Sequence record: ON528734
Reading direction: 5' to 3' (one strand)
From: Shigella phage ESh24
Length of the DNA: 64,000 nt
The notes under the pieces are model-generated. The model worked only from the letters and a program-made list of their open reading frames with translations. It was not told where the DNA came from and did not search any database. Positions 40,047 through 57,637 of the stretch are shown in pieces. A program made the position numbers and the translations under genes. Within the stretch, counting starts at the first letter, position 1; each line of letters starts with the position of its first letter.

Positions 40047-40145
40047 TTGCTTATTATAAATAGATTATAATTATCTCACTGACCAGCTATGAGGTCATAC
40101 ATCGTCATAGCACCAACTGTTAATTAAATTAAAAAGGAAATAAAA
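40047..40145 (+). promoter_or_regulatory. gene 32 translational operator (pseudoknot plus unstructured A/U-rich tract)
   Basis: TGACC AGCTATGA GGTCA ... TCATAGC pseudoknot-forming repeats, then AATTAAATTAAAAAGGAAATAAAA before ATG. Confidence 0.65.
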
Positions 40146-41054
40146 ATGTTTAAACGTAAATCTACTGCTGAACTCGCTGCACAAATGGCTAAACTGGCTG
40201 GAAATAAAGGTGGTTTTTCTTCTGAAGATAAAGGCGAGTGGAAACTGAAACTCGATAATGCGGGTAATGGTCAAGCAGTAATTCGTTTTCTTCCGTCTAA
40301 AAATGATGAACAAGCACCATTCGCAATTCTTGTAAATCACGGTTTCAAGAAAAATGGTAAATGGTATATTGAAAACTGTTCATCTACCCACGGTGATTAC
40401 GATTCTTGTCCAGTATGTCAGTATATCAGTAAAAATGATCTGTACAACACTGACAATAAAGAGTACAGTCTTGTTAAACGTAAAACTTCTTACTGGGCTA
40501 ACATTCTTGTTGTAAAAGACCCAGCTGCTCCAGAAAACGAAGGTAAAGTATTTAAATATCGTTTCGGTAAGAAAATCTGGGATAAAATCAACGCAATGAT
40601 TGCAGTTGATGTTGAAATGGGTGAAACTCCGGTTGATGTAACTTGTCCGTGGGAAGGTGCTAACTTTGTACTGAAAGTTAAACAAGTTTCTGGATTTAGT
40701 AACTACGACGAATCTAAATTCCTGAATCAATCTGCGATTCCAAACATTGATGATGAATCTTTCCAGAAAGAACTGTTCGAACAAATGGTTGACCTTTCTG
40801 AAATGACTTCTAAAGATAAATTCAAATCGTTTGAAGAACTAAGCACTAAGTTCAGTCAAGTTATGGGAACTGCTGCTATGGGTGGTGCCGCAGCAACTGC
40901 CGCTAAGAAAGCTGATAAAGTTGCTGATGATTTGGATGCATTCAATGTTGATGACTTCAAAACAAAAACTGAAGATGATTTTATGAGCTCAAGCTCTGGC
41001 AGTTCATCTAGTGCTGATGACACGGACCTGGATGACCTTTTGAATGACCTTTAA
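40146..41054 (+). CDS. 32: single-stranded DNA-binding protein gp32
   Basis: [17 protein letters not shown]..., Zn-binding Cys/His, acidic C-tail; T4 gp32. Confidence 0.95.
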
Positions 41055-41076
41055 TAGATTATATTACTAATTAATT

Positions 41077-41101
41077 GGGGACCCTAGAGGTCCCCTTTTT
41101 A
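41077..41101 (+). terminator. intrinsic terminator after gene 32
   Basis: GGGGACCCTAGAGGTCCCC + TTTTT. Confidence 0.7.
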
Positions 41102-41125
41102 TTTCAAAAATTTTTTCACAAAACG

Positions 41126-41155
41126 GTTTACATCCTTGTCCTTCCATGGTACTAT
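41126..41155 (+). promoter_or_regulatory. T4-type early promoter
   Basis: GTTTAC 41126-41131, TGGTACTAT 41147-41155. Confidence 0.55.
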
Positions 41156-41198
41156 ACAACTATCGGCAATACTGCTGATGATTAAAGAGGAAAATAAT

Positions 41199-41429
41199 AT
41201 GGCTAAAGTTGATATTGACATTGTTGATTTTGAATATATTGAAGAGATTATTCGTAATCGTTATCCTGAACTTAGTATCACAAGTATTCACGATGATCCC
41301 AATTATTGCAATTTTTCTATTGTCATTGAAGGTCCTCTTGAAGACCTCACCCGCTTTATGGCTAATGAATATTGTGATGGTATGGATTCTGAAGACGCAG
41401 AATTTTACATGGGATTGATTGAACAATAA
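41199..41429 (+). CDS. hypothetical acidic protein
   Basis: 76 aa from ATG 41199 with RBS AAAGAGGAAAA. Confidence 0.4.
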
Positions 41430-41473
41430 TTATCAAGGGGCTATTACAGCCCCGTTAAAATGAGGAAAACGCA

Positions 41474-41839
41474 ATGTATATCGGTAAAAAGTATGAACTT
41501 GTTCCAAGACTTATTGATACATTTATTAATTATCGCCCACGTTCTAATTCAGCAATAGTTAAAATTATTCAAGAAAATGGCGGATGGTTTGAAGTTAAAG
41601 AAGCTTTCTTTGTTGATGGATTTAGAGTAATAAAACACATTGAATGCGCAAATGGAAAGCATTTTTACTTTAACGTTTGTGAAGACGAATTTCATTGTTT
41701 TCGTGAGTATAAAGAACTGACTTCTGAAGAAGATGAAGTCAAAGACAAGGTTTCTGGCGTAACAAAAATTCACTGCATTGTAGACGAAAACAATGTAGAT
41801 GAAATCATTGAACTTTTGCGAAAAACTTTCAAAAAGTAG
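41474..41839 (+). CDS. hypothetical protein
   Basis: 121-aa ORF. Confidence 0.5.
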   Translation: MYIGKKYELVPRLIDTFINYRPRSNSAIVKIIQENGGWFEVKEAFFVDGFRVIKHIECANGKHFYFNVCEDEFHCFREYKELTSEEDEVKDKVSGVTKIHCIVDENNVDEIIELLRKTFKK

Positions 41840-41893
41840 TTTACAACAGGGTAGTAGTGTGATACTATTACCCTATCAACTAAGGAGAATAAA

Positions 41894-42136
41894 ATGAGAT
41901 TACAACGCCAGAGCATCAAAGATTCGGAAGTTAGAGGTAAATGGTATTTTAATATCATCGGTAAAGATTCTGAACTCGTTGAAAAAGCTGAACATCTTTT
42001 ACGTGATATGGGATGGGAAGATGAATGTGATGGATGCCCTCTTTATGAGGATGGAGAAAGCGCAGGATTCTGGATTTACCATTCTGACGTCGAGCAGTTT
42101 AAAGCTGATTGGAAAATTGTGAAAAAGTCTGTTTAA
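41894..42136 (+). CDS. hypothetical protein
   Basis: 80-aa ORF. Confidence 0.5.
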   Translation: MRLQRQSIKDSEVRGKWYFNIIGKDSELVEKAEHLLRDMGWEDECDGCPLYEDGESAGFWIYHSDVEQFKADWKIVKKSV

Positions 42137-42146
42137 GGAAAATAAT

Positions 42147-42389
42147 ATGATTTTTGTATTTGAATTTATGAATGATGAATTCGATTATGCAATTTTTAAC
42201 GCATTGCATAATCCTGATTTAAATGAATTTAATGAAATGTTTTCTGACGCTTTGAGCATGTCAGAAGAATACTGTGGAGAATGTCAACGTGTTTGTGTGA
42301 CAGTTTTTGAAAACAAAGAAAAGACTTACGAAGAATTATTCTTTGATGCTAATAAAGCCACTGAATGGTTTATTGAAAGGGGGTTTTGA
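42147..42389 (+). CDS. hypothetical acidic protein
   Basis: 80-aa ORF. Confidence 0.5.
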   Translation: MIFVFEFMNDEFDYAIFNALHNPDLNEFNEMFSDALSMSEEYCGECQRVCVTVFENKEKTYEELFFDANKATEWFIERGF

Positions 42390-42977
<588 letters not shown>

Positions 42978-42996
42978 AATAACGTGTGGCGGAAAT

Positions 42997-43344
42997 ATGA
43001 ATTTTAATTATTACCCTATTCTATTAGAAAAAGATGATAAGCAGCCAAAGTGGCAGGGTCCTCAGTTTATTAAAGGCGTCTATCAATTAGTAGTTCCTAA
43101 AGACAAGATTTATAGCAGTTGTTTCACTGAATCCGCCTGCAGTATTTTCGGTAATAGTTCTCCGTATTGGAATTTTGACATAAAGCTGGATAGAAATATC
43201 GATATTTGGTTGAAAGCTATGGATATTGGTAATATCACGTTTGATGAGAATAATTATCATATTATTGGTCGCTTTTCCAAACGCGGTAAAGAATTGTATT
43301 TCACACCTGAAATTGAAAGAAAATTTGATGCTAAACCGTATTGA
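42997..43344 (+). CDS. hypothetical protein inserted between frd and td
   Basis: 115-aa ORF; in T4 frd and td overlap (recalled), so this ORF occupies an extra slot. Confidence 0.5.
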   Translation: MNFNYYPILLEKDDKQPKWQGPQFIKGVYQLVVPKDKIYSSCFTESACSIFGNSSPYWNFDIKLDRNIDIWLKAMDIGNITFDENNYHIIGRFSKRGKELYFTPEIERKFDAKPY

Positions 43345-43387
43345 TTATTTAGCTTCATAAAATGTATTATAATATATAAGGTACTAA

Positions 43388-43936
43388 ATGAAACAATACC
43401 AAGATTTAATTAAAGACATTTTTGAAAATGGCTATGAAACCGATGACCGAACAGGCACAGGAACAATTGCTTTGTTTGGTACTAAATTACGCTGGGATTT
43501 AACTAAAGGTTTTCCTGCAGTAACAACTAAGAAGCTCGCTTGGAACGCATGTATTGCTGAGCTTCTATGGTTTATTTCCGGTTCTACCAATGTTAATGAT
43601 TTACGTCTTCGTACTCATGGTAGTCTTATTCAAGGTAAAACTATCTGGGATGACAATTATGAAAACCAAGCTAAAGACCTAGGATATCATAGTGGTGAAC
43701 TTGGTCCAATTTATGGAAAACAGTGGCGTGATTTCGGTGGTGTGGATCAATTAGTTGAAACTATTGATCGTATTAAAAAATTACCAACTGATCGACGTCA
43801 AATCGTTTCAGCATGGAATCCAGCTGAAATCAATCAAATGGCATTACCGCCCTGTCATATGTTCTATCAGTTTAATGTGCGTAATGGCTATTTAGATTTG
43901 CAGTGGTATCAACGATCAGTAGATGTTTTCTTGGGT
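43388..43936 (+). CDS. td: thymidylate synthase, exon 1
   Basis: TS N-terminal domain; exon ends ...TTGGGT before intron TAATTGAGGCCTGAGTATAAGG. Confidence 0.9.
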
Positions 43937-44952
43937 TAATTGAGGCCTGAGTATAAGGTGACTTATACTTGTAATCTATCTAAACGGGGAACCTCTCTAG
44001 TAGACAATCCCGTGCTAAATTGTAGGACTGCCCTTTAATAAATACTTCTATATTTAAAGAGGTATTTATGAAAAGCGGAATTTATCAGATTAAAAATACT
44101 TTAAACAATAAAGTATATGTAGGAAGTGCTAAAGATTTTAAAAAGAGATGGAAGAGGCATTTTAAAGATTTAGAAAAAGGATGCCATTCTTCTATAAAAC
44201 TTCAGAGGTCTTTTAACAAACACGGTAATGTGTTTGAATGTTCTATTTTGGAAGAAATTCCATATGAGAAAGATTTGATTATTGAACGAGAAAATTTTTG
44301 GATTAAAGAGCTTAATTCTAAAATTAATGGATACAATATTGCTGATGCAACGTTTGGTGATACATGTTCTACACATCCATTAAAAGAAGAAATTATTAAG
44401 AAACGTTCTGAAACTGTTAAAGCTAAGATGCTTAAACTTGGACCTGATGGTCGGAAAGCTCTTTACAGTAAACCCGGAAGTAAAAACGGGCGTTGGAATC
44501 CAGAAACCCATAAGTTTTGTAAGTGCGGTGTTCGCATACAAACTTCTGCTTATACTTGTAGTAAATGCAGAAATCGTTCAGGTGAAAATAATTCATTCTT
44601 TAATCATAAGCATTCAGACATAACTAAATCTAAAATATCAGAAAAGATGAAAGGTAAAAAGCCTAGTAATATTAAAAAGATTTCATGTGATGGGGTTATT
44701 TTTGATTGTGCAGCAGATGCAGCTAGACATTTTAAAATTTCGTCTGGATTAGTTACTTATCGTGTAAAATCTGATAAATGGAATTGGTTCTACATAAATG
44801 CCTAACGACTATCCCTTTGGGGAGTAGGGTCAAGTGACTCGAAACGATAGACAACTTGCTTTAACAAGTTGGAGATATAGTCTGATCTGCATGGTGACAT
44901 GTAGCTGGATATAATTCCGGGGTAAGATTAACGACCTTATCTGAACATAATG
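43937..44952 (+). mobile_element. td group I intron (1016 nt) carrying I-TevI
   Basis: 5' intron sequence matches the T4 td intron as recalled; 1016-nt length equals T4 td intron; exon 2 resumes in frame. Confidence 0.9.
44068..44805 (+). CDS. I-TevI: GIY-YIG homing endonuclease I-TevI
   Basis: 245 aa; GIYQIKNTLNNKVYVGS GIY-YIG motif, Zn finger, C-terminal DNA-binding domain. Confidence 0.9.
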   Translation: MKSGIYQIKNTLNNKVYVGSAKDFKKRWKRHFKDLEKGCHSSIKLQRSFNKHGNVFECSILEEIPYEKDLIIERENFWIKELNSKINGYNIADATFGDTCSTHPLKEEIIKKRSETVKAKMLKLGPDGRKALYSKPGSKNGRWNPETHKFCKCGVRIQTSAYTCSKCRNRSGENNSFFNHKHSDITKSKISEKMKGKKPSNIKKISCDGVIFDCAADAARHFKISSGLVTYRVKSDKWNWFYINA

Positions 44953-45264
44953 CTACCATTTAATATTGCATCATATGCTGCGTTAGTTCATATTGTAGCT
45001 AAGATGTGTAATCTTATTCCTGGAGATTTGATATTTTCTGGCGGTAATACTCATATCTATATGAATCATGTGGAACAATGTAAAGAAATTTTACGTCGTG
45101 AACCTATGGATTTATGCGAATTGCAATTAAAATTTCCAGATGAATTTGATGAATGGGACACAGAATCGCAGGTATTTTGGTTGAGTCAATTCGCAAAGCC
45201 GCATAATTTTGTTCTTAACAACTATGAATCACACCCTTCTATTAAAGGAAAGATGGCGGTGTAA
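44953..45264 (+). CDS. td: thymidylate synthase, exon 2
   Basis: continues [15 protein letters not shown]...; joined product 286 aa. Confidence 0.9.
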
Positions 45265-45284
45265 TTTTATTATTGCGAGGATAT

Positions 45285-45548
45285 ATGATTTTACGATTTA
45301 AAGATACTTCTGGTGTCGTTCTTTTTACACTTCCTAATCCAAGCGAGTTAGAAGTTCCAGGACCAAATCAGCCTATTATCATTTATGGCAAAAAATATTA
45401 TACTCATAAAATGACTCGTGAGTATTTTGATAATAAAATTTCTACAGTTAAAACTTCTTCAGATTGTTACTATGATATTACTGTTTTAACGGAAAAACAA
45501 TATGACGAATTATCACCGCGCGGGCCGTCTATGCCAGGTAGTGAATAA
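45285..45548 (+). CDS. hypothetical protein (nrdA.2 position)
   Basis: 87 aa from ATG 45285. Confidence 0.45.
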
Positions 45549-45828
45549 ATATAAATCCGACTTTGATGTTAATATTCACCGTGGTACATTTTGGGGAAAT
45601 TACGTCGGTAAAGATGCTGGCAGCCGGGAGGCTGCCATTGAATTATTCAAAAAAGATTTTATACGTCGAATTAAATCCGGAGAAATAACTAAAGCACATT
45701 TAGAGCCTTTACGTGGAATGAGGCTAGGATGCACATGTAAACCAAAGCCGTGTCATGGTGATATAATAGCTCATATAGTTAACCGATTGTTTAAAGACGA
45801 TTTTCAAGTTGAGGACTTATGCAATTAA
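45502..45828 (+). CDS. hypothetical protein (nrdA.1 position)
   Basis: 108-aa ORF overlapping neighbours. Confidence 0.45.
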
Positions 45829-48083
45829 TTAATGTTATCAAAAGTAGTGGTGTTTCTCAGAGCTTTGACCCGCAAAAAATTATTAAAGTTTTATCTTGGG
45901 CAGCTGAAGGAACATCAGTCGATCCTTATGAATTATATGAAAATATTAAATCATATCTCCGTGATGGAATGACAACTGATGATATTCAGACTATTGTCAT
46001 TAAGGCCGCTGCGAATTCTATTTCAGTTGAAGAGCCTGATTATCAATACGTAGCCGCGCGCTGTTTAATGTTTGCTCTTCGTAAGCATGTTTATGGGCAG
46101 TATGAACCACGTTCATTTATTGACCATATTTCTTACTGTGTAAATGAAGGTAAATATGACCCTGAATTATTGTCAAAATATTCAGCAGAAGAAATTACAT
46201 TTTTAGAATCAAAAATTAAGCACGAGCGGGATATGGAATTTACTTATTCCGGGGCGATGCAATTAAAAGAAAAATATCTCGTTAAAGATAAAACTACTGG
46301 TCAAATTTATGAAACTCCACAGTTTGCATTTATGACTATTGGAATGGCACTGCATCAAGATGAACCTGTTGATAGATTAAAACATGTTATTCGTTTTTAT
46401 GAAGCAGTATCTACTCGACAGATTTCATTGCCAACTCCTATTATGGCTGGTTGTCGTACTCCGACTCGACAGTTTAGTTCATGCGTTGTTATTGAGGCAG
46501 GTGATTCATTGAAGTCTATCAATAAGGCTTCCGCTTCAATTGTTGAATATATCTCTAAACGCGCTGGAATTGGTATTAACGTTGGTATGATTCGTGCCGA
46601 AGGTTCTAAGATTGGCATGGGTGAAGTACGCCATACCGGTGTTATTCCTTTTTGGAAACATTTTCAGACTGCTGTTAAATCATGTTCACAGGGTGGAATT
46701 CGTGGCGGCGCTGCTACTGCTTATTATCCTATTTGGCATTTGGAAGTTGAAAATCTTCTCGTTTTGAAAAATAACAAAGGTGTAGAAGAAAACCGCATTC
46801 GTCATATGGATTATGGTGTTCAGCTGAATGATTTGATGATGGAACGTTTTGGAAAGAACGATTACATTACTTTGTTCAGTCCGCATGAAATGGGTGGCGA
46901 GCTTTATTATTCTTATTTTAAAGATCAAGACCGTTTCCGTGAATTATACGAAGCTGCAGAAAAAGACCCTAATATTCGTAAAAAGCGTATTAAAGCCCGT
47001 GAACTGTTTGAATTGCTTATGACTGAACGCTCAGGAACAGCAAGGATTTATGTGCAGTTCATTGATAATACGAATAACTATACTCCGTTTATTCGTGAAA
47101 AGGCACCTATTCGCCAGAGTAACTTGTGCTGTGAAATTGCTATTCCAACAAATGATGTGAATAGTCCTGATGCTGAAATTGGCTTGTGTACTCTCTCTGC
47201 ATTCGTACTAGATAATTTTGACTGGCAAGACCAAGATAAAATTAATGAATTAGCAGAAGTTCAAGTTCGTGCTCTTGATAATCTTTTGGATTACCAAGGA
47301 TATCCAGTTCCTGAAGCAGAAAAAGCTAAAAAGCGTCGTAACCTCGGTGTAGGTGTTACTAACTATGCAGCTTGGCTGGCAAGTAACTTTGCTTCTTATG
47401 AAGATGCTAACGATTTAACACATGAACTATTTGAGAGATTACAGTATGGACTCATTAAAGCATCCATTAAGCTCGCCAAAGAAAAAGGACCTTGCGAATA
47501 TTATTCAGACACTCGTTGGTCTCGAGGCGAATTACCTATCGACTGGTACAATAAAAAGATTGACCAAATCGCAGCTCCAAAATACGTTTGTGACTGGTCG
47601 TCGCTGCGGGAAGACCTTAAGCTCTTTGGCATCCGTAATAGCACATTATCAGCACTTATGCCATGTGAGTCATCTTCCCAAGTTTCTAACAGTACAAACG
47701 GTATCGAGCCTCCACGTGGACCAGTCTCTGTTAAAGAATCAAAAGAGGGCTCCTTTAATCAAGTCGTGCCCAATATTGAACATAACATAGACCTATATGA
47801 TTATACATGGAAATTAGCTAAGAAAGGTAATAAACCTTATCTTACGCAGGTAGCTATTATGCTGAAATGGGTATGTCAATCAGCTTCGGCGAATACATAT
47901 TATGACCCACAGATTTTTCCAAAAGGAAAGGTTCCAATGTCAATAATGATTGATGACCTTTTGTATTTTTGGTATTTTGGCGGAAAAAATTTCTATTATC
48001 ATAATACCCGTGATGGTTCTGGTACTGATGATTATGAAATAGAAACTCCTAAAGCTGAAGATTGTTCATCCTGTAAATTATGA
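45819..48083 (+). CDS. nrdA: aerobic ribonucleotide reductase large subunit NrdA
   Basis: 754 aa with ATP-cone N-terminus and class I RNR catalytic motifs. Confidence 0.95.
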   Translation: MQLINVIKSSGVSQSFDPQKIIKVLSWAAEGTSVDPYELYENIKSYLRDGMTTDDIQTIVIKAAANSISVEEPDYQYVAARCLMFALRKHVYGQYEPRSFIDHISYCVNEGKYDPELLSKYSAEEITFLESKIKHERDMEFTYSGAMQLKEKYLVKDKTTGQIYETPQFAFMTIGMALHQDEPVDRLKHVIRFYEAVSTRQISLPTPIMAGCRTPTRQFSSCVVIEAGDSLKSINKASASIVEYISKRAGIGINVGMIRAEGSKIGMGEVRHTGVIPFWKHFQTAVKSCSQGGIRGGAATAYYPIWHLEVENLLVLKNNKGVEENRIRHMDYGVQLNDLMMERFGKNDYITLFSPHEMGGELYYSYFKDQDRFRELYEAAEKDPNIRKKRIKARELFELLMTERSGTARIYVQFIDNTNNYTPFIREKAPIRQSNLCCEIAIPTNDVNSPDAEIGLCTLSAFVLDNFDWQDQDKINELAEVQVRALDNLLDYQGYPVPEAEKAKKRRNLGVGVTNYAAWLASNFASYEDANDLTHELFERLQYGLIKASIKLAKEKGPCEYYSDTRWSRGELPIDWYNKKIDQIAAPKYVCDWSSLREDLKLFGIRNSTLSALMPCESSSQVSNSTNGIEPPRGPVSVKESKEGSFNQVVPNIEHNIDLYDYTWKLAKKGNKPYLTQVAIMLKWVCQSASANTYYDPQIFPKGKVPMSIMIDDLLYFWYFGGKNFYYHNTRDGSGTDDYEIETPKAEDCSSCKL

Positions 48084-48134
48084 TATAATTTGACTCATGG
48101 ACGAGTCACTATCTATTAACTAAGTGGAAAATTT

Positions 48135-48810
48135 ATGAGCACAGTTTTTAATACAAATCCAGTTGATGTTTTAAAAGAACCTATGTTTTTTGGTTCAGGT
48201 CTTGGTATTGCGCGTTATGATATTCAGCGGCATCGAGTATTTGAAGAACTTACTGAGAAGTCTTTATCATTTTTCTGGCGTCCTGAAGAAGTAAACTTAA
48301 TGATGGATGCTGCGCAATTTAATAAGCTTCCTCAGTATCAGCAAAATATTTTTACTAATAACCTGAAGTATCAATCACTTTTGGATAGCATTCAGGGTCG
48401 TGCGCCATCTGCTGTACTTATGTCATTAATTTCAGACCCGAGTCTTGATACATGGGTTGCTACATGGACTTTTAGTGAAACTATTCACAGTCGTTCATAT
48501 ACACATATCATGCGAAATCTTTATACTGATCCATCGAAGGTATTTGATGAGATTGTATTAGATGAAGCTATTATGAAACGCGCTGAATCCATTGGACGTT
48601 ATTATGATGATGTTCTGATTAAAACCCGTGAATGGGAAAATGCTAAAGAATTTGTAGAACTAGCTAAAGAATCTCCTGATGCCGACTTTCGTTTAAACAG
48701 GGCTATTAAACAAGAAGCCGAAGCTAAACGCGCTTTAATGAAATCTCTTTACCTCTGTTTACACGTTATTAATGCCTTAGAAGCTATTCGTTTTTATGTA
48801 TCTTTTGCGT
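48135..48810 (+). CDS. nrdB: ribonucleotide reductase small subunit NrdB, exon 1
   Basis: RNR R2 fold; exon ends ...YVSFA plus first base of Cys codon. Confidence 0.85.
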
Positions 48811-49895
48811 AAAATGCGCCTTTAAACGGTAACGTTTATCGAAAACTCCTTTAATTGCTGGAAAGTCCTTTATAGGAAAACTAGCAGCCAAGGTTTTGCT
48901 TGCACCTTTAATTAGTATAATATGATTATACTTTTAAGAGGATGCACAATTGAACTATAGAAAAATTTGGATAGATGCTAACGGACCTATACCTAAAGAT
49001 TCTGATGGAAGAACATACGAAATCCATCATAAAGACGGTAACCGTGAAAATAATGATTTAGATAATTTGATGTGCCTTTCTATACAGGAACATTATGATA
49101 TACATTTAGCTCAAAAAGATTACCAGGCTTGTCATGCTATAAAGCTTAGAATGAAATATTCTCCTGAAGAAATTTCTGAATTAGCTTCTAAAGCCGCAAA
49201 ATCTAGAGAAATCCAGATTTTTAATATCCCTGAAGTACGAGCTAAAAATATTGCCTCTATTAAATCTAAGATAGAAAATGGTACATTTCATCTTTTAGAC
49301 GGTGAAATACAGCGTAAATCTAATTTAAATAGAGTTGCATTAGGTATACATAATTTTCAACAAGCTGAGCATATTGCAAAAGTTAAAGAACGCAATATTG
49401 CAGCTATAAAAGAAGGTACTCATGTATTTTGCGGTGGTAAAATGCAGTCAGAAACTCAATCAAAACGGGTAAATGACGGTTCACATCATTTCTTGTCAGA
49501 AGACCATAAGAAAAGAACATCAGCAAAAACATTAGAAATGGTTAAGAACGGGACCCATCCTGCACAAAAAGAAATCACATGTGATTTCTGCGGTCACATT
49601 GGTAAAGGTCCTGGATTTTATCTAAAACATAATGACAGATGTAAATTAAATCCAAATAGAATTCAATTGAATTGTCCATATTGTGATAAGAAAGATTTAT
49701 CACCATCAACATATAAACGATGGCACGGCGACAATTGCAAAGCAAGGTTCAACGACTAGTCTTCGGACGTAGGGTCAAGCGACTCGAAATGGGGAGAATC
49801 CCTCTGGGATTGTGATATAGTCTGGTCTGCATAGTAATATGTAGCAGTTCATAAGAGAACGGGTTGAGAATTAGCGAGCTCAATCGAACATAACG
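48811..49895 (+). mobile_element. nrdB group I intron (about 1085 nt) carrying I-TevIII-like ORF
   Basis: boundaries inferred from restoring NrdB frame (...SFA-C-TFNFHKNMEIMEGNAK...); 5' splice after U, intron ends in G. Confidence 0.7.
48950..49759 (+). CDS. I-TevIII: HNH homing endonuclease I-TevIII-like (full length)
   Basis: 269 codons; HNH motif EIHHKDGNRENNDLDNL, C-terminal Zn fingers; ORF begins at TTG, no in-frame ATG nearby. Confidence 0.65.
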   Translation: MNYRKIWIDANGPIPKDSDGRTYEIHHKDGNRENNDLDNLMCLSIQEHYDIHLAQKDYQACHAIKLRMKYSPEEISELASKAAKSREIQIFNIPEVRAKNIASIKSKIENGTFHLLDGEIQRKSNLNRVALGIHNFQQAEHIAKVKERNIAAIKEGTHVFCGGKMQSETQSKRVNDGSHHFLSEDHKKRTSAKTLEMVKNGTHPAQKEITCDFCGHIGKGPGFYLKHNDRCKLNPNRIQLNCPYCDKKDLSPSTYKRWHGDNCKARFND

Positions 49896-50398
49896 GTACC
49901 TTTAACTTCCATAAGAACATGGAAATCATGGAAGGTAATGCCAAGATTATGAAGTTCATTGCACGCGATGAACAGCTTCACCTTAAAGGCACCCAATATA
50001 TTATTCGTCAGCTTCAATCCGGTACTGATGGTGATGAATGGGTTAAAATTGCCAAAGAGTGTGAACAAGAAGCAGTTGATATTTTCATGGAAGTTAACCG
50101 CCAAGAAAAAGATTGGGCAGTTCATTTATTTAAAGATGGCGATGTTCCTGGATTAAATACAAATAGCATGTGGAGCTTTATTGATTACTTAACTGTATCT
50201 CGTATGAAACAGTGTGGTCTTCCATGCCCGATTACCGATGCTCCGGTTAAACATCCATATCCTTGGATTCGTGAATACCTTAATTCTGATAATGTTCAAT
50301 CCGCGCCGCAAGAAGTAGAACTGTCATCTTATCTTGTTGCACAGATTGATAATGATGTTGATGATAAAGTTATGATGAGTTTTAAAAAATACTTTTAA
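49896..50398 (+). CDS. nrdB: ribonucleotide reductase small subunit NrdB, exon 2
   Basis: in-frame continuation; joined product about 392 aa. Confidence 0.85.
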
Positions 50399-50403
50399 GG
50401 AGT

Positions 50404-50422
50404 GGGCCGCAAGGCCCATTTT
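50404..50422 (+). terminator. terminator-like hairpin after nrdB
   Basis: GGGCCGCAAGGCCC + ATTTTATT. Confidence 0.55.
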
Positions 50423-50425
50423 ATT

Positions 50426-52013
<1,588 letters not shown>

Positions 52014-52016
52014 GTT

Positions 52017-52046
52017 GTTTACAAGTCCCTCATGCTGTGTTATAGT
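52017..52046 (+). promoter_or_regulatory. T4-type early promoter
   Basis: GTTTAC 52017-52022, TATAGT 52041-52046. Confidence 0.5.
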
Positions 52047-52077
52047 AGTCTTACTGACATAACATGAGGACTTTATG

Positions 52078-52581
52078 ATGGATTTGCAGCTTATTACTAC
52101 TGAAATGGTCGTTGAAGCATACGGTGATACTACAGATGGGATTTCTGTATTTAAAGGAAATCGTCGAGTTGGATATATCACCGATCTTAAGAAAGATTTA
52201 GCTAAGCAAGTCAAGCGGAAAACGACCATTAAAGAATATCGAAATCGTCGTCTTGAGCAAGCCCGTGATATGCTTCCTGATGCGGTTGAGGAGATGAAAG
52301 TCTTTTTAGAAAATCAACTCGCTAAGTATGAGTGCGAAGTATTCATTAATCAGACTCAACCTAATGTTCATATCAATAGCTGCAAATGCTATATCATCGT
52401 TAATCCTTTGACGGGAAAACATCGTCTTGGAATTAGTAATCCAAATCGTAGCGCATCGGATATGGCAGAAGATGTTGAGGCATGCTTTAAAATTTCTAAA
52501 TCTCCGGCTGAACACCATATTTTAATTAACGGTCTTTCTCAAGACGATATTGTAGAGGTTATTAAAACTTTATGCAATTAA
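52078..52581 (+). CDS. alc: Alc-like protein (position of the host transcription terminator alc)
   Basis: 167 aa from second ATG; position between 63 and pseT. Confidence 0.45.
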   Translation: MDLQLITTEMVVEAYGDTTDGISVFKGNRRVGYITDLKKDLAKQVKRKTTIKEYRNRRLEQARDMLPDAVEEMKVFLENQLAKYECEVFINQTQPNVHINSCKCYIIVNPLTGKHRLGISNPNRSASDMAEDVEACFKISKSPAEHHILINGLSQDDIVEVIKTLCN

Positions 52582-52925
52582 GTAATACGACAGCAGGTTT
52601 GCTATTAATTGTAATAGCATTGGGCGGAACATCTATTATTTTAAAAAATAAGGTAGAAAGATTAGAAACATCAGTTACTGAAATTACAAAAACAGCCAAT
52701 GAAAACGCTTTAGCATTAAATAATTTGCGAATTCAGTATAATTATATTGATGCGATGAATAATAAAAATCGTGAGGCAATTGCTGCTATTGAGCGTGAAA
52801 ATGAAAAACTGCGCAAAGACGCAAAGAAGGCGGATGTGGTGGCTCATAAGCCAGGATTGGTTGAAAAACAAATCAACAATTCCTTCAACAAGTTCGCAGA
52901 AGACATCCAGGACCTTTCTAAATGA
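52572..52925 (+). CDS. hypothetical membrane-anchored coiled-coil protein
   Basis: 117 aa, N-terminal TM helix. Confidence 0.45.
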   Translation: MQLSNTTAGLLLIVIALGGTSIILKNKVERLETSVTEITKTANENALALNNLRIQYNYIDAMNNKNREAIAAIERENEKLRKDAKKADVVAHKPGLVEKQINNSFNKFAEDIQDLSK

Positions 52926-53221
52926 TTAAACTATCGGCAGTAATATTATCTATTGGTCTTCTAGTTGGTTGTTCTACAAAGCCTCTAGAAGTAAAGAAAG
53001 AAACAGTTCATCCTAATTGGCCTGTACAAATAAAGTCATATGATGAAGCTAAACTATCTTGGCAAGTTAAAGTTATTGATGGTAAAGCTTGGGTCGGTAT
53101 GCCATTTGAAGATTCCCAGGAATTTCGTATTTGGCTTAATGATGTAAAACGATATGTACATGACCAGAAAACTATGATATGTTATTATCGTCAAGAGCTA
53201 AAAGAGGATAAATGTAAATGA
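52922..53221 (+). CDS. putative lipoprotein
   Basis: 99 aa; signal peptide with lipobox LLVGCS. Confidence 0.45.
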   Translation: MIKLSAVILSIGLLVGCSTKPLEVKKETVHPNWPVQIKSYDEAKLSWQVKVIDGKAWVGMPFEDSQEFRIWLNDVKRYVHDQKTMICYYRQELKEDKCK

Positions 53222-53444
53222 TTTCATGGCATCAATTTGAACATCTCAAAGGATTGATTTATGAATCTGAGATGGCCGCAATGATTTATGGACGCCAGAT
53301 TCAACGATTAGAATCTTTACCTCCAACTAATGATGTTTTATTAGCTCAATCTCGGGTTAATCTTAAAAATGAATATCAAAATAAGTGGGGTAAAGCATCT
53401 AAAGACCTGCATGATTATATTCAATCATTGGTTGAGAAAAATAA

Positions 53445-53448
<4 letters not shown>
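53218..53448 (+). CDS. hypothetical protein
   Basis: 76-aa ORF. Confidence 0.4.
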
Positions 53449-54669
<1,221 letters not shown>

Positions 54670-54670
<1 letters not shown>

Positions 54671-54867
54671 TGGCTTTGCACCATGAAACTTGGGCTATTG
54701 TTATTGTAAATAGCGGTTTAGTTGGTACTAGTAATGGGCAATTTTGTGTATTTACTAGTGAAAATAGAGCATGGGAGGAATGTCTTAAATTAAGAGAAAA
54801 GAATCCTGATGTTGAACTAGTAGTAAAGAAAACTAAACTGCCTTTACCATGGAAAACTTATGAATAA
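54670..54867 (+). CDS. hypothetical protein
   Basis: 65 aa from ATG overlapping pseT stop. Confidence 0.4.
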
Positions 54868-55060
54868 CCTAGAAAAGATTTATCATCTTTGTGATAAAAT
54901 TGAAAAAGAAAAGAAATATCTATTTTGTTTATGGCCTATTGTTGATGGAAGAGTAGGCTTAGATGTTCTTGATTATGAAACAGAAGACAGAGTAGATGGT
55001 TCAACTTTTGATAACGCTTTAGATGTTATTGATTGGCTTGAAGAAAATTATGTGAGGTAA
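54860..55060 (+). CDS. hypothetical protein
   Basis: 66-aa ORF. Confidence 0.4.
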   Translation: MNNLEKIYHLCDKIEKEKKYLFCLWPIVDGRVGLDVLDYETEDRVDGSTFDNALDVIDWLEENYVR

Positions 55061-55062
55061 AT

Positions 55063-55338
55063 ATGTTTCCGACTTACTCTAAAATCGTAGAAGTAGTGTT
55101 TAGCCAAATTATCGCTAATAATATGTTTGAAAAACTTGATAATGCAGCTGAGCTTCGAATCCATGCTCAAGTGACTCATGTATTGAATACTTTGCTTCCA
55201 GACCAGGTGGATTCTGTTGCCATCACGTTGTATCCAGGTTCCGCGCATATCATTGTTGTATTCGGTCTTGATGCTGAGCTAGTCATCAAAGGCGATATTC
55301 GTTTTGAATCGCAGACAGCAGAATTCAAAGCAATTTAA
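55063..55338 (+). CDS. hypothetical protein
   Basis: 91-aa ORF. Confidence 0.45.
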   Translation: MFPTYSKIVEVVFSQIIANNMFEKLDNAAELRIHAQVTHVLNTLLPDQVDSVAITLYPGSAHIIVVFGLDAELVIKGDIRFESQTAEFKAI

Positions 55339-55340
55339 TA

Positions 55341-55370
55341 GTTTACTTTACGGTAGAGTTGTGATATTAT
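55341..55370 (+). promoter_or_regulatory. T4-type early promoter
   Basis: GTTTAC 55341-55346, TATTAT 55365-55370. Confidence 0.5.
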
Positions 55371-55399
55371 AGCTCTACCAAACAAATGAGGAAAACAAA

Positions 55400-55639
55400 A
55401 TGCTGCTAAGTGAAAAACCGATTACTGTTAAAGAATTCCAAGAAAAAGTTAAGTTATTTGCACAGGAATTGGTAAATAAGGTTTCTGAACGATTTCCTGA
55501 AACATCGGTTCGTGTTATTACCGAAACTCCTCGTTCAGTATTAGTAATTGTGAATCCAGGTGATGGCGATCAAATATCGCATCTTAAACTGGATTTTGAT
55601 GGATTAGTTGAAGCACAAAGGGTGTATGGCGTACTATGA
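55400..55639 (+). CDS. hypothetical protein
   Basis: 79-aa ORF. Confidence 0.45.
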   Translation: MLLSEKPITVKEFQEKVKLFAQELVNKVSERFPETSVRVITETPRSVLVIVNPGDGDQISHLKLDFDGLVEAQRVYGVL

Positions 55640-55974
55640 TGAATTTAACTGATATAATTGATAATTGTCTTGAAAATGATACTGGCGATCATAGAGCGCT
55701 TGATTCTGAAACAGCACAGTTCATTAGAATAACTTTAATGAATGATACTCTGGTGAATAGTATTCATCCTTCTGTGTATGATGCTATTATTGTGACGAAG
55801 TATCCAGTTGAGCTTCACAAAAAGATGGTTGGCGCAATTTTTATTGATAAGAAAAACCGCTTTAAAGACGGGCAGAATATAATTAGTTCTATTATTAAAA
55901 GTATAACTAAACTTCGTCACGAAATTTATCGTGTTGAAACTGCTAAATCTGCTTATCTGGTGATTATGAAATGA
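55636..55974 (+). CDS. hypothetical protein
   Basis: 112-aa ORF. Confidence 0.45.
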   Translation: MMNLTDIIDNCLENDTGDHRALDSETAQFIRITLMNDTLVNSIHPSVYDAIIVTKYPVELHKKMVGAIFIDKKNRFKDGQNIISSIIKSITKLRHEIYRVETAKSAYLVIMK

Positions 55975-56552
55975 AAGCGAGTACAGTACTTCAAATTGCA
56001 TATTTAGTATCACAAGAATCAAAATGTTGCTCCTGGAAGGTAGGAGCAGTAATTGAAAAGAATGGACGTATTATTTCTACTGGGTATAATGGTTCGCCTG
56101 CCGGTGGTGTGAACTGCTGTGATTATGCTGCCGAGCAAGGTTGGTTGTTGAATAAACCTAAACATACTATCATTCAAGGTCATAAGCCTGAATGCGTATC
56201 ATTTGGTTCAACTGATCGCTTTGTCTTGGCGAAAGAACACCGTAGCGCTCACTCTGAATGGTCGTCTAAAAATGAAATTCATGCTGAACTAAATGCAATT
56301 TTGTTTGCTGCACGAAATGGTTCTTCTATTGAAGGTGCTACTATGTATGTAACACTTTCTCCTTGTCCAGATTGTGCAAAAGCGATAGCTCAATCTGGTA
56401 TTAAAAAGCTGGTTTATTGCGAAACATACGATAAAAATAAACCTGGCTGGGATGATATTCTGCGAAATGCAGGTATTGAAGTGTTTAATGTTCCTAAGAA
56501 AAACTTGAATAAGTTAAACTGGGAAAATATCAACGAATTCTGTGGTGAATAA
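55971..56552 (+). CDS. cd: dCMP deaminase
   Basis: 193 aa; cytidine/dCMP deaminase Zn motifs HAELNA and SPCPDC. Confidence 0.9.
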   Translation: MKASTVLQIAYLVSQESKCCSWKVGAVIEKNGRIISTGYNGSPAGGVNCCDYAAEQGWLLNKPKHTIIQGHKPECVSFGSTDRFVLAKEHRSAHSEWSSKNEIHAELNAILFAARNGSSIEGATMYVTLSPCPDCAKAIAQSGIKKLVYCETYDKNKPGWDDILRNAGIEVFNVPKKNLNKLNWENINEFCGE

Positions 56553-56789
56553 TGAAATTTCGTTTGGTAAAGCTCACAGCAATTAGTTCTTATTCTAATG
56601 AGAACATCTCGTTTGCTGTAGAGTATAAGAAATATTTTTTTCTCTAAATGGAAACAGTATTATAAAACTGATTGGACTAGTATTGATAGACCATATAGTT
56701 GGAAATCTGATTTAGAAAAATGCCAAAAATTACTTTCCACTCTTAAAGAACGTGGAACAACTCATATTAAAACTGTAATAGGTAAATAA
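56552..56789 (+). pseudogene. small ORF broken by a frame change in a T7 homopolymer (31.2 position)
   Basis: frame stops after 31 codons at 56645-56647 right after TTTTTTT (56635-56641); +1 frame continues 47 codons to TAA 56787-56789 abutting next ATG. Confidence 0.35.
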
Positions 56790-57098
56790 ATGAAACTGAC
56801 AACTGAGCAGAAAGTAGCAATTCGCGAAATTTTGAAAACTAAATTGTCCATGGGTGTTTCAAACGTAGTTTTTGAAAAGTCTGATGGTACTATTCGTACT
56901 ATGAAAGGTACTCGTGATGCAGACTTTATGCCAACCATGCAAACCGGTAAGTTGACTGAATCTACTCGGAAAGAATCTACGGATATGATTCCAGTATTTG
57001 ATGTTGAACTTGGTGCATGGCGAGGTTTTTCTATTGACAAATTGATTTCCGTTAATGGTATGAAAGTTGAGCATTTACTCCAATTTATTGGTAAATAA
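56790..57098 (+). CDS. hypothetical protein (31.1 position)
   Basis: 102-aa ORF. Confidence 0.5.
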   Translation: MKLTTEQKVAIREILKTKLSMGVSNVVFEKSDGTIRTMKGTRDADFMPTMQTGKLTESTRKESTDMIPVFDVELGAWRGFSIDKLISVNGMKVEHLLQFIGK

Positions 57099-57154
57099 AT
57101 GCTTTAAGAATTATTTGTTATTATTAACTCATCTGTTAACAAAAAGGAAAAACG

Positions 57155-57490
57155 ATGTCTGAAGTACAACAGCTACCAATTCGTGCTGTCGGTGAATATG
57201 TTATTTTAGTTTCTGAACCTGCACAGGCTGGTGATGAAGAAGTTACAGAATCAGGACTTATTATCGGTAAACGTGTTCAAGGTGAAGTTCCTGAACTGTG
57301 TGTAGTTCACTCTGTTGGTCCTGATGTTCCTGAAGGTTTCTGCGAAGTTGGTGATTTGACTTCTCTTCCAGTTGGTCAAATTCGAAATGTTCCGCATCCT
57401 TTTGTAGCTCTGGGTCTTAAGCAGCCAAAAGAAATTAAACAAAAATTTGTTACCTGTCATTATAAAGCTATTCCGTGTCTTTATAAGTGA
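57155..57490 (+). CDS. 31: co-chaperonin gp31 (GroES analogue)
   Basis: 111 aa; T4 gp31 length and position next to rIII. Confidence 0.85.
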
Positions 57491-57637
57491 TATAAATAAT
57501 AATATGAATTGGGTGTCGGAATAATAAGTTAACCGAACAATTCTATGTGGTAGTCTACAACTGAGAGATCTGTCGAAAGAAGATGAAATTCAGAAGAACG
57601 TGACTACCGAGTTTTAATCTCTAACGAGAATTTTTAA

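Follow-up and report, generated by a model that had tools for sequence, protein, structure and literature searches.

The split nrdB gene and its group I intron

The nrdB gene of Shigella phage ESh24 (ON528734) is divided into two exons by a group I intron, and the P6a loop of the intron carries the gene for I-TevIII (Table 1). The window, that is the whole stretch of DNA analysed here, has a length of 64,000 nucleotides. The intervening element is the already known self-splicing nrdB intron of T4-like phages (Tequatrovirus), with a full-length I-TevIII. The nrdB frame, which starts at position 48135, is interrupted by a UAA stop at 48810-48812, formed by the last base of exon 1 (U48810) and the first two bases of the intron, and reopens at 49896. 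In silico excision of the intron produces a 392-residue NrdB containing the sequence ...FYVSFACTFNFHKNMEIMEGNAK..., with a single stop codon at its end. A 134-nucleotide query spanning the spliced junction has an unbroken match in RB32 and RB33, two phages without the intron, and is identical there at 133 of the 134 nucleotides (99.3%). Both exon motifs flank an insert of 1091 nucleotides in RB3 and of 598 nucleotides in T4, the latter being the published length of the T4 intron. An earlier note on this DNA, made from the sequence alone, had placed an interruption of about 1085 nucleotides in nrdB with the junction at 48810/49896, which is confirmed by the read-through alleles of RB32 and RB33 and by the T4 intron boundaries. 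An intein or a genuinely split nrdB gene was rejected, given the presence of a group I core and of intron-less alleles that run through the junction unbroken. In a sequence search, 84 records contained at least 80% of the ESh24 intron.

Table 1. Features of the nrdB intron region in the window (nucleotide positions, or residues of I-TevIII where marked aa)
Feature	Position	Strand	Description
nrdB exon 1	48135-48810	+	225 codons plus 1 nt; end identical to T4 and RB3
Group I intron, subgroup IA2 type	48811-49895	+	1085 nt; 99.4% identity to the RB3 nrdB intron across 100% of the intron length
P1	48807-48819	+	exon GCGU (48807-48810) with guide GCGC (48816-48819); manual model, 4/4 pairs in 6/6 sequences
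P2 hairpin, GUAA loop	48823-48838	+	compensatory changes at two pairs in S16 and HY03
5' core half	48846-48889	+	Rfam alignment of the ORF-less derivative L027 concordant
P3 5' strand	48846-48851	+	manual model
P4	48856-48861 with 48881-48886	+	manual model
P5	48866-48868 with 48875-48877	+	manual model
P6 5' strand	48887-48889	+	manual model
Operator-like site TTTTGCTTGCACCTTTAATT (putative)	48894-48913	+	17/20 positions as in the intron-less junction TTTTGCGT/GTACCTTTAACT
Middle-promoter-like element (predicted)	48895-48921	+	TTTGCTTGC, 12-bp spacer, TATAAT (48916-48921); intact despite the deletion
P6a 5'	48896-48903	+	overlapped by the operator-like site
Hairpin hiding the ribosome-binding site (predicted)	48901-48946	+	46 nt; loop AUG (48922-48924)
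Site of 6-nt deletion relative to RB3 and T4	48919-48924	+	RB3 AGTATAATATAAATATG, window AGTATAATATG
Shine-Dalgarno AAGAGG	48936-48941	+	8 nt 5' of TTG; context invariant in 7 phages
I-TevIII gene	48950-49759	+	TTG start, 269 codons, 30.9 kDa; TAG stop 49757-49759
HNH motif	aa 4-48		Pfam HNH_3, E = 6e-13
Four G-x-H-x-F repeats of about 22 aa	starts at aa 111-177
Zinc finger 1, CX2CX12-13HX3C	aa 211-231		CDFCGHIGKGPGFYLKHNDRC from residue 211 (C211, C214)
Zinc finger 2, CX2CX12-13HX3C	aa 242-263		CPYCDKKDLSPSTYKRWHGDNC from residue 242 (C242, C245)
P6a 3' / P6 3' / J6/7 / P7 5'	49737-49745 / 49746-49748 / between / 49754-49758	+	within the end of the ORF
3' core half	49759-49895	+	manual model and Rfam alignment of L027
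P7.1	49759-49768	+	GUC-UUCG-GAC, UUCG loop; pairs invariant
P7.2	49772-49785	+	GGGUC-AAGC-GACUC; pairs invariant
P3 3' / P8 / P7 3'	49791-49796 / 49798-49810 / 49818-49822	+	manual model
P9	49827-49844	+	compensatory A-U to G-C in T4, HY03, Pu-Krd-SF4
P9.1 / P9.2 / terminal G	49847-49860 / 49862-49885 / 49895	+	manual model
nrdB exon 2	49896-50398	+	2 nt, then 166 codons and stop

Group I modelling, proposed in the earlier note as a check of the splice sites, yielded a core from P1 to P9.2 that agrees with them: U48810 forms a wobble pair with G48816 in P1, and the intron ends with G49895, as is the rule for group I introns. All core helices, including the P3/P7 pseudoknot, can be drawn with 100% pairing in the six sequences compared, in which most pairs never vary. 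The 72-pair model is paired in 99.3% of cells, as against 34-42% in slid controls, a comparison that favours the model as it was built from those same sequences. Changes on both sides of a pair occur at three pairs, located in P2 and P9 only, and P3 to P8 are invariant among these six closely related sequences. The presence of P7.1 and P7.2 between P7 and P3 is a hallmark of subgroup IA.

The Rfam search of the whole window at the gathering threshold gave no match. The group I family RF00028 scored just 34 bits against the window, which is below threshold, with the 5' half misaligned inside the ORF, because the 810-nucleotide ORF splits the core. The natural ORF-less derivative of 300 nucleotides, which corresponds base for base to the ESh24 intron without 48946-49730, reached 69.1 bits (E = 1.9e-17, cut-off 50). 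Natural nrdB introns without the ORF are found in SP21535 (300 nucleotides; exactly the ESh24 intron minus 48946-49730) and in PD112, CE1, and BYEP01 (about 304 nucleotides), and their ribozyme cores are identical to that of ESh24. In the ORF-less introns, the ORF is deleted between 7-bp direct repeats, ACAATTG, located at 48946-48952 and 49731-49737.

The I-TevIII reading frame

As in RB3, the ORF is situated in the P6a loop of the nrdB intron, and its last eight codons (49737-49758) also form parts of P6a, P6, and P7 of the intron core. The encoded protein can be divided into an N-terminal HNH motif, a series of four short repeats, and two zinc fingers. It shares 268 of its 269 residues with the characterised RB3 enzyme, and its computed mass of 30.86 kDa is close to the published 30.8 kDa. 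Residues His26, His27, Asn39, and His48, the catalytic role of which was established with alanine mutants of the RB3 enzyme (PMC1865063), are all present. From its sequence, the gene is identified as that of I-TevIII, the HNH homing endonuclease of the nrdB intron. The full-length HNH and zinc-finger ORF described in the earlier note is thus borne out by the HNH_3 match, the two zinc fingers, and the near-identity to RB3. The note was also right that the T4 copy is truncated, which is due to a 491-nucleotide internal deletion, although the intact form is not rare: the ORF is full-length in 87 of 128 ORF-carrying phage records. The exact 269-residue protein is present in 294 blocks of a public assembly collection, and phages phiD1, JK45, AV121, and others encode the identical protein.

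The only residue that differs from the RB3 enzyme is Tyr23, which is Asp in RB3. An inactivating effect of this exchange next to the HNH histidines was considered and rejected, as Tyr23 is also present in S16, HY03, Bp7, fPS-2, and Pu-Krd-SF4, and Asp23 is peculiar to RB3. A Pfam match of residues 74-114 to FlgM (26.2 bits, cut-off 25) was likewise not taken to indicate an anti-sigma function, and is attributed to a helical I-x-x-I-K-x-x-I-x-N-G-T motif that resembles FlgM by chance. The search of PDB sequences with the ORF protein returned no match, and hence no solved structure of I-TevIII or of a detectable relative.

The ribosome-binding-site hairpin and the loss of the late promoter

The segment preceding the ORF is predicted to fold into a hairpin with a free energy of -14.9 kcal/mol (z = -4.8), and none of 200 shuffled sequences was equally stable. 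The lower stem is formed by UGCACCUUU and AGAGG/AUGCA, and the upper stem by AGUAUAAU and AUUAUACU. The Shine-Dalgarno sequence AAGAGG is paired with CCUUU. RB3, S16, and HY03 have the same fold, but their loops are longer, with 9, 12, and 15 nucleotides, respectively, as against three in ESh24; the predicted stability of the ESh24 hairpin is on par with that of RB3. The masking of the ribosome-binding site by a hairpin in read-through transcripts is part of a published model (PMC2988022; the regulatory model is also given in PMC3014915). The corresponding regulatory module of T4 intron endonucleases is credited to Gott 1988 and Edgell, Gibb & Belfort 2010. The suggestion of the earlier note that expression of the ORF depends on intron RNA structure agrees with that model, and the hairpin is present in ESh24.

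Two further elements overlap the 5' hairpin arm. The 17 of 20 positions that the operator-like site shares with the homing site were matched in none of 300 shuffles, and the site overlaps both the 5' strand of P6a and the MotA-box-like TTTGCTTGC (48895-48903). The MotA box consensus ends in tA, and the box in ESh24 ends in GC. The stretch corresponding to the middle-promoter-like element is annotated in Yersinia phage fPS-2 as 'predicted middle promoter'. A sigma-70 promoter 5' of the ORF was rejected on inspection, with the -35-like hexamers positioned just 10-14 bp from TATAAT. The T4 records NC_000866, MT984581, and HM137666 contain no annotated promoter in the intron. The late promoter is reportedly the functional promoter of I-TevIII, in part according to Gott et al. 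in 1988. A review draws the late promoter in the I-TevIII hairpin, yet its wording is 'middle or late' promoters. A putative operator in the I-TevIII region has been indicated previously (PMC2988022, Fig. 4B legend).

The ESh24 hairpin loop lacks one unit of an AATATA/AATATG tandem repeat, and the exact position of the 6-nucleotide deletion is ambiguous within the repeat. The loss of this unit removes the late-promoter box TATAAATA, which does not occur on the plus strand between 40055 and 57491. The box is kept in 17 other loci from three genera; it occurs in RB3, T4, S16, Bp7, fPS-2, and 10 further loci, as well as in HY03, whose loop is longer. The deletion, which the earlier note did not mention, is the sole real difference of the ESh24 intron from RB3 and T4.

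The same deletion is present in 11 other distinct phages of the collection, and the ORF is defective in all of them. In U5, it is accompanied by a 2-nucleotide frameshift in the ORF. Phages F26, LH2, 215Ecol030PP, FL12, FL18, FL23, FL44, G8, and Lv5cm combine it with the 491-nucleotide deletion, some with further frameshifts, and SG1 has an ORF that is more truncated. The ORF-less intron of SP21535 carries the 6-nucleotide deletion too. Unlike all other carriers in the collection, ESh24 has an intact ORF alongside the deletion. Exact patterns of the deletion junction were found neither in IMG/VR nor in JGI metagenomes, and neither was the RB3-type control, so that the intron region is absent from these data and they are uninformative on allele frequency.

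The RB3 intron (Eddy & Gold 1991, X59078; Robbins et al. 2007, PMC1865063) shares with that of ESh24 the interrupted gene, the insertion site, the 269 codons, the TTG, the Shine-Dalgarno sequence, the HNH residues, the zinc fingers, the hairpin, and the operator-like site. It differs in having AATATA in the hairpin loop, and hence TATAAATA, and in residue 23, where ESh24 has the common state. In addition, mobE is located between nrdA and nrdB in RB3, whereas there is none in the window. The closest sequence is the nrdB intron of U5 (AY262133; 99.6%), which has the 6-nucleotide deletion and the Tyr23 codon in common with ESh24, but contains the frameshifting deletion and two substitutions, lacks an annotated ORF, and has hef upstream of nrdB. 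The variant I-TevIII hairpin of U5 has been mentioned previously (PMC2988022, Fig. 5 legend). The T4 intron agrees with that of ESh24 in insertion site, core, hairpin, Shine-Dalgarno sequence, and TTG, and has kept TATAAATA, but its internal deletion removed the HNH motif. The defective T4 copy of I-TevIII is well documented (PMC1865063, PMC2790892), and the mobility of the T4 nrdB intron relies on mobE in trans (PMC2790892).

We conclude, with a probability of about 93%, that the element is a mobile group I intron of T-even nrdB with I-TevIII in its P6a loop, and that it represents an RB3-type, full-length allele that has lost the late promoter. None of the observations speaks against this identification. 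By homology to RB3 and T4, the RNA would fold into the P1-P9.2 core and self-splice, enabling synthesis of the 392-residue small subunit of ribonucleotide reductase. Translation of I-TevIII would begin at the native UUG, and the product, like the near-identical RB3 enzyme, is probably an HNH endonuclease that forms dimers and has two zinc fingers; its cut would cause the intron to be copied into the cleaved allele. In the nrdB read-through pre-mRNA, the hairpin would pair the Shine-Dalgarno sequence and keep ribosomes off the ORF. In RB3 and T4, late transcripts from TATAAATA in the loop would not contain the 5' arm of the hairpin, which would leave the ribosome-binding site free. Since ESh24 has lost the late promoter and kept the hairpin, one would expect its I-TevIII expression to be lower, or to rely on the predicted middle promoter.

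The td intron of T4 with I-TevI is built in the same way: its ORF lies in a P6 loop and runs at the 3' end into P6, P6a, and P7, the ribosome-binding site is masked by a hairpin, and the promoter is covered by an operator similar to the homing site. I-TevI differs from I-TevIII in being a monomeric GIY-YIG enzyme, and the td design includes the late promoter that the ESh24 allele lacks. Experimental proof that the endonuclease represses its own gene and that its translation must be delayed exists for I-TevI only, for which stronger translation was also shown to impair splicing.

An alternative reading of the ESh24 allele, less probable than not, is that the I-TevIII sequence is undamaged but the gene is hardly expressed, if at all, and that the intron is no longer self-mobile; decay of the homing endonuclease would then be at its initial stage. 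The allele may then be a natural snapshot, in which the coding sequence is intact, the late promoter was lost by a 6-bp slip in the AATAT(A/G) repeat, and the translation-blocking hairpin was kept. The retention of TATAAATA at the other loci in three genera, the defective ORFs of all 11 other carriers together with the deletion in the ORF-less SP21535, and a hairpin as stable as that of RB3 point in this direction. However, the ORF has no disabling change and encodes the commonest I-TevIII protein. The middle-promoter-like element is intact, and a transcript starting there would also be without the 5' hairpin arm. Moreover, the association between deletion and decay is phylogenetically non-independent and may represent one or two lineages, and a unit of a tandem repeat may be lost recurrently.

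It is somewhat less probable that the MotA-type middle promoter maintains expression, in which case the late promoter would be redundant and the deletion a neutral polymorphism of loop length. The box, the spacer, and the -10 element are all in place, the annotation of fPS-2 designates the same stretch a middle promoter, and loops of four different lengths occur naturally. Nevertheless, every longer loop variant has kept TATAAATA, which suggests selection on that box, the middle promoter is a prediction, and its MotA-like box deviates from the consensus at its end. The literature, too, confines expression of intron endonucleases to late times (PMC2790892).

If I-TevIII of ESh24 is silent, a homing endonuclease gene would lose its regulation before its coding sequence decays. 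The combination of promoter loss with an intact ORF constitutes a natural test of the need for the late promoter in I-TevIII expression and homing, and of whether regulatory loss comes first. The discovery value is otherwise small, with the intron and the endonuclease being already known.

The TTG start codon and its annotation

The TTG at 48950 is the sole start codon that retains the HNH motif. No start is possible upstream, because an in-frame TAA at 48935-48937 is separated from the TTG by just GAG GAT GCA CAA. No in-frame ATG occurs before codon 41 (49070), and a protein starting there would be without His26, His27, and Asn39. The TTG and the preceding 20 nucleotides do not vary among seven phages of three genera (ESh24 and six relatives, including another genus at 89% protein identity). 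The TTG is annotated as the start in the RB3 record X59078 from 1991 and in the RB3 genome, and the way residues are numbered in the in vitro work on the RB3 enzyme is consistent with Met1 being encoded by the TTG. The earlier note correctly described an ORF that lacks an ATG start and opens with TTG; judged by the sequences of the relatives, all six of which have the same start, as does the RB3 record, TTG is the normal start of I-TevIII and no anomaly. It is highly improbable that translation begins instead at the ATG of codon 41 or after a mini-ORF AUG CAC AAU UGA (48942-48953), giving a product that differs from the 269-residue protein. In favour of this, TTG initiates weakly, and the Shine-Dalgarno sequence is directly followed by an AUG, with the mini-ORF UGA overlapping the UUG. 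Against it, that AUG is out of frame and has zero spacing from the Shine-Dalgarno sequence, a Met41 start loses three residues each needed for cleavage, the TTG is well spaced from AAGAGG (8 nt) in an invariant context, and the 30.8-kDa full-length protein numbered from the TTG is active.

These assignments are of use for annotation, as in many deposited genomes the ORF is entered as a 'hypothetical protein' and nrdB as two separate genes. In the T4 reference record, the remnant is given an out-of-frame ATG start, equivalent to position 48975 of the window, and the resulting 97-residue ORF enters the zinc-finger frame only past the deletion.

Structure and setting of the nrdB intron

The nrdB reading frame of ESh24 runs into a TAA straddling 48810/48811 and continues from 49896, and excision of the intervening 1085 nt yields an NrdB of 392 aa that reads ...YVSFA-C-TFNFHK... 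across the splice. An interruption of about 1085 nt spliced at 48810/49896 had been proposed from the sequence, and it is borne out by the restored frame and by phages RB32 and RB33, whose natural nrdB alleles are intron-less: a 134-nt spliced-junction query gives a single uninterrupted match in both (133/134 nt). Among the comparisons available, this contiguity gives the strongest proof of the predicted splice sites. In T4 and RB3, identical exon motifs flank inserts of 598 nt (the length published for T4) and 1091 nt, respectively.

ESh24 is a T4-like phage (Tequatrovirus), and the 20 kb around the intron are ~96% identical to AV121, SHFML-11, RB3, and relatives. The intron matches 128 phage records, 84 of which hold at least 80% of its length, and is 99.6% identical to that of phage U5 and 99.4% identical to that of RB3, including the 1991 RB3 record X59078. 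Judged by sequence, the element has a probability of about 0.93 of being the RB3 nrdB intron with I-TevIII in both identity and mechanism.

The Rfam group I model (cut-off 50 bits) scores only 34 bits on the window because the 810-nt ORF parts the two halves of the core; the properly aligned part is the 3' half (P7, P3', P8, and P9). An ORF-less nrdB intron of 300–304 nt is present in SP21535, PD112, CE1, and BYEP01. That of SP21535 equals the window intron minus 48946–49730, base for base, and reaches 69.1 bits (E = 1.9e-17). Helices P1, P2, P3, P4, P5, P6, P6a, P7, P7.1, P7.2, P8, P9, P9.1, and P9.2 could all be drawn by hand, and the pairing was checked on six distinct sequences (the window, T4, S16, HY03, F26, and Pu-Krd-SF4). 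The model pairs in 99.3% of 432 cells, versus 34–42% with partners slid by 1–3 columns. Compensatory changes affect two P2 pairs and one P9 pair, and G-U is replaced once by A-U in P4 and once by G-C in P9. The catalytic core is invariant in all six sequences, which makes covariation uninformative there, so that the group I argument for the core rests on the Rfam score. The last eight codons of the ORF double as P6a 3', P6 3', J6/7, and P7 5'.

Features of the nrdA–rnlA region (window coordinates)
Feature	Position	Remark
nrdA	45819-48083	
nrdB exon 1	48135-48810	
nrdB intron	48811-49895	1085 nt
Direct repeat ACAATTG, first copy	48946-48952	start codon
Direct repeat ACAATTG, second copy	49731-49737	near ORF 3' end
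nrdB exon 2	49896-50398	
denA	50426-50836	
rnlA	from 50853	

The gene order from nrdA to rnlA is that of RB3, except that the 51-nt gap between nrdA and nrdB (48084–48134) contains neither mobE, found there in T4 and RB3, nor hef, found in U5, F26, and others. The helper reported to promote homing of the T4 intron in trans is therefore missing from the window. Between nrdB and denA, a GC-rich hairpin GGGCCGCAAGGCCC followed by a T-run (50402–50421) looks like an intrinsic terminator; an Rfam L20_leader match at this position is weak and sub-threshold (24 versus 58.7 bits). The denA start is most likely the ATG at 50426 (136 aa, as in RB3) rather than the GTG at 50402 from the ORF list. Many deposited phage genomes carry nrdB as two separate genes and I-TevIII as a 'hypothetical protein', and spurious antisense ORFs are placed within the intron in some records (FL12, FL44).

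I-TevIII and its start codon

The 269-codon HNH/zinc-finger ORF (48950–49759) opens with TTG, as read previously, and the earlier identification of a group I intron with full-length I-TevIII was correct: the protein differs from RB3 I-TevIII solely at residue 23, which is Y in the window and D in RB3. Y23 also occurs in S16, HY03, Bp7, fPS-2, and Pu-Krd-SF4, which makes the D23 of RB3 the exception. The exact window protein is encoded by phiD1, JK45, AV121, and many other phages and is present in 294 blocks of the public assembly collection (ENA, NCBI, Logan). RB3 I-TevIII confers mobility on its intron, is active as a dimer, and requires H26, H27, N39, and H48 for cleavage and C211/C214 and C242/C245 for binding zinc and DNA (Robbins et al. 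2007, PMC1865063). All these residues are retained in the window protein when it is numbered from the TTG, and its predicted mass of 30.86 kDa agrees with the published 30.8 kDa. Pfam HNH_3 matches residues 4–48 (E = 6e-13). A FlgM (anti-sigma-28) match to residues 74–114 (window 49169–49291; 26.2 bits, cut-off 25) is probably due to chance. The linker (residues 111–199, window 49280–49546) contains four ~22-aa repeats with the motif G-[TSI]-[HF]-x-[FL], starting at residues 111, 132, 156, and 177, with a weaker fifth near 199, which probably form a beads-on-a-string DNA-binding array. No solved structure of I-TevIII or a relative is detectable by sequence.

The non-canonical start raised in the earlier note is nothing exceptional: the intron and its endonuclease have been known for decades, and TTG is the normal, conserved start, annotated in both X59078 and the RB3 genome. 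The TTG and the preceding 20 nt (ACTTTTAAGAGGATGCACAA) are unchanged in RB3, fPS-2, Pu-Krd-SF4, HY03, Bp7 (a Dhakavirus), and S16 (a Gelderlandvirus with 89% protein identity), and the TTG lies 8 nt from the end of AAGAGG. Initiation further upstream is barred by an in-frame TAA four codons before the TTG, and the first ATG in frame, codon 41, would leave out three catalytic residues, so an active enzyme can be made only from the TTG. A 2010 review (PMC2988022) assigns all three intron endonucleases an 'AUG initiation codon', contrary to the UUG of the I-TevIII sequence. Immediately after the Shine-Dalgarno sequence comes a three-codon mini-ORF, AUG CAC AAU UGA (48942–48953), whose UGA overlaps the UUG. 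None of the relatives compared departs from it, and its AUGCA is also the hairpin base. In the T4 reference (NC_000866, locus L008, 1392–1685), the 97-aa 'defective I-TevIII' is annotated from an ATG that corresponds to position 48975 of the window and is not in frame with the true N-terminus. T4 keeps the conserved TTG and Shine-Dalgarno sequence upstream. Only the length of the T4 deletion, 491 nt (2 mod 3), brings the remnant into the zinc-finger frame.

A hairpin without the late-promoter box

In the published model, intron endonuclease ORFs lie within early and middle host-gene transcripts, in which a hairpin conceals the ribosome-binding site; a promoter in the hairpin region gives shorter late transcripts with the site free, and an operator similar to the homing site overlaps the promoter (PMC2988022, PMC3014915, PMC2790892). 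For I-TevI, premature translation upsets P6, P6a, and P7 and reduces splicing (same sources). The proposed dependence of expression on intron RNA structure agrees with this model, and a hairpin of this kind is predicted in the window (48901–48946; AAGAGG paired with CCUUU; MFE -14.9 kcal/mol, z-score -4.8). The operator-like segment 48894–48913 shares 17 of its 20 positions with the intron-less junction, with 0 of 300 shuffles as good.

The hairpin loop of RB3, T4, Bp7, fPS-2, Pu-Krd-SF4, S16, and HY03, and of ten further loci that encode the same I-TevIII protein as the window, contains TATAAATA, the T4 late-promoter consensus. The window is one 6-nt unit shorter than RB3 and T4 in the AATATA/AATATG tandem at 48919–48924 (compare L001, 1311–1327). 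AGTATAATATG remains, the promoter box is gone, and a 9-nt loop has become one of 3 nt; the predicted hairpin stability is the same. No TATAAATA occurs from 40055 to 57491 on the + strand. That the deletion is a genuine allele and no artefact of the window is shown by 11 other phages that share it: U5, Lv5cm, F26, LH2, 215Ecol030PP, FL12, FL18, FL23, FL44, G8, and SG1. The variant U5 hairpin was noted in a figure legend (Fig. 5, PMC2988022). The ORF is defective in all 11, by a 2-nt frameshift in U5 and in the other ten by the T4-type 491-nt deletion, some with extra frameshifts, or a larger truncation. The ORF-less SP21535 intron has the 6-nt deletion too, and the best full-length intron matches besides U5 all retain the 6 nt. 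In the collection searched, the window alone combines the deletion with an intact ORF. IMG/VR and JGI metagenomes contain no exact match to either the window-type or the RB3-type 35–45-nt hairpin region.

Without this promoter, the I-TevIII gene may be mostly silent and represent an early stage in the decay cycle of homing endonucleases. That the deletion goes together with decayed ORFs is suggestive, but the cases are phylogenetically non-independent, and the deleted unit lies within a slippage-prone repeat. Alternatively, a putative middle-type promoter may be enough for expression, which would make the deletion neutral: a MotA-box-like TTTGCTTGC, a 12-bp spacer, and TATAAT are intact at 48895–48921, the counterpart of which is annotated in fPS-2 as a 'predicted middle promoter'. 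The intact but promoter-less allele merits a note as a minor natural variant.

Loss of the ORF

The putative decay cycle is otherwise fully displayed by the three intron size classes in the database: full-length (1085–1091 nt), internally deleted (590–598 nt), and ORF-less (300–304 nt). Because the SP21535 intron is the window intron minus the ORF, the ORF can vanish cleanly with the ribozyme kept. Its removal occurred exactly between the two copies of the 7-bp direct repeat ACAATTG.
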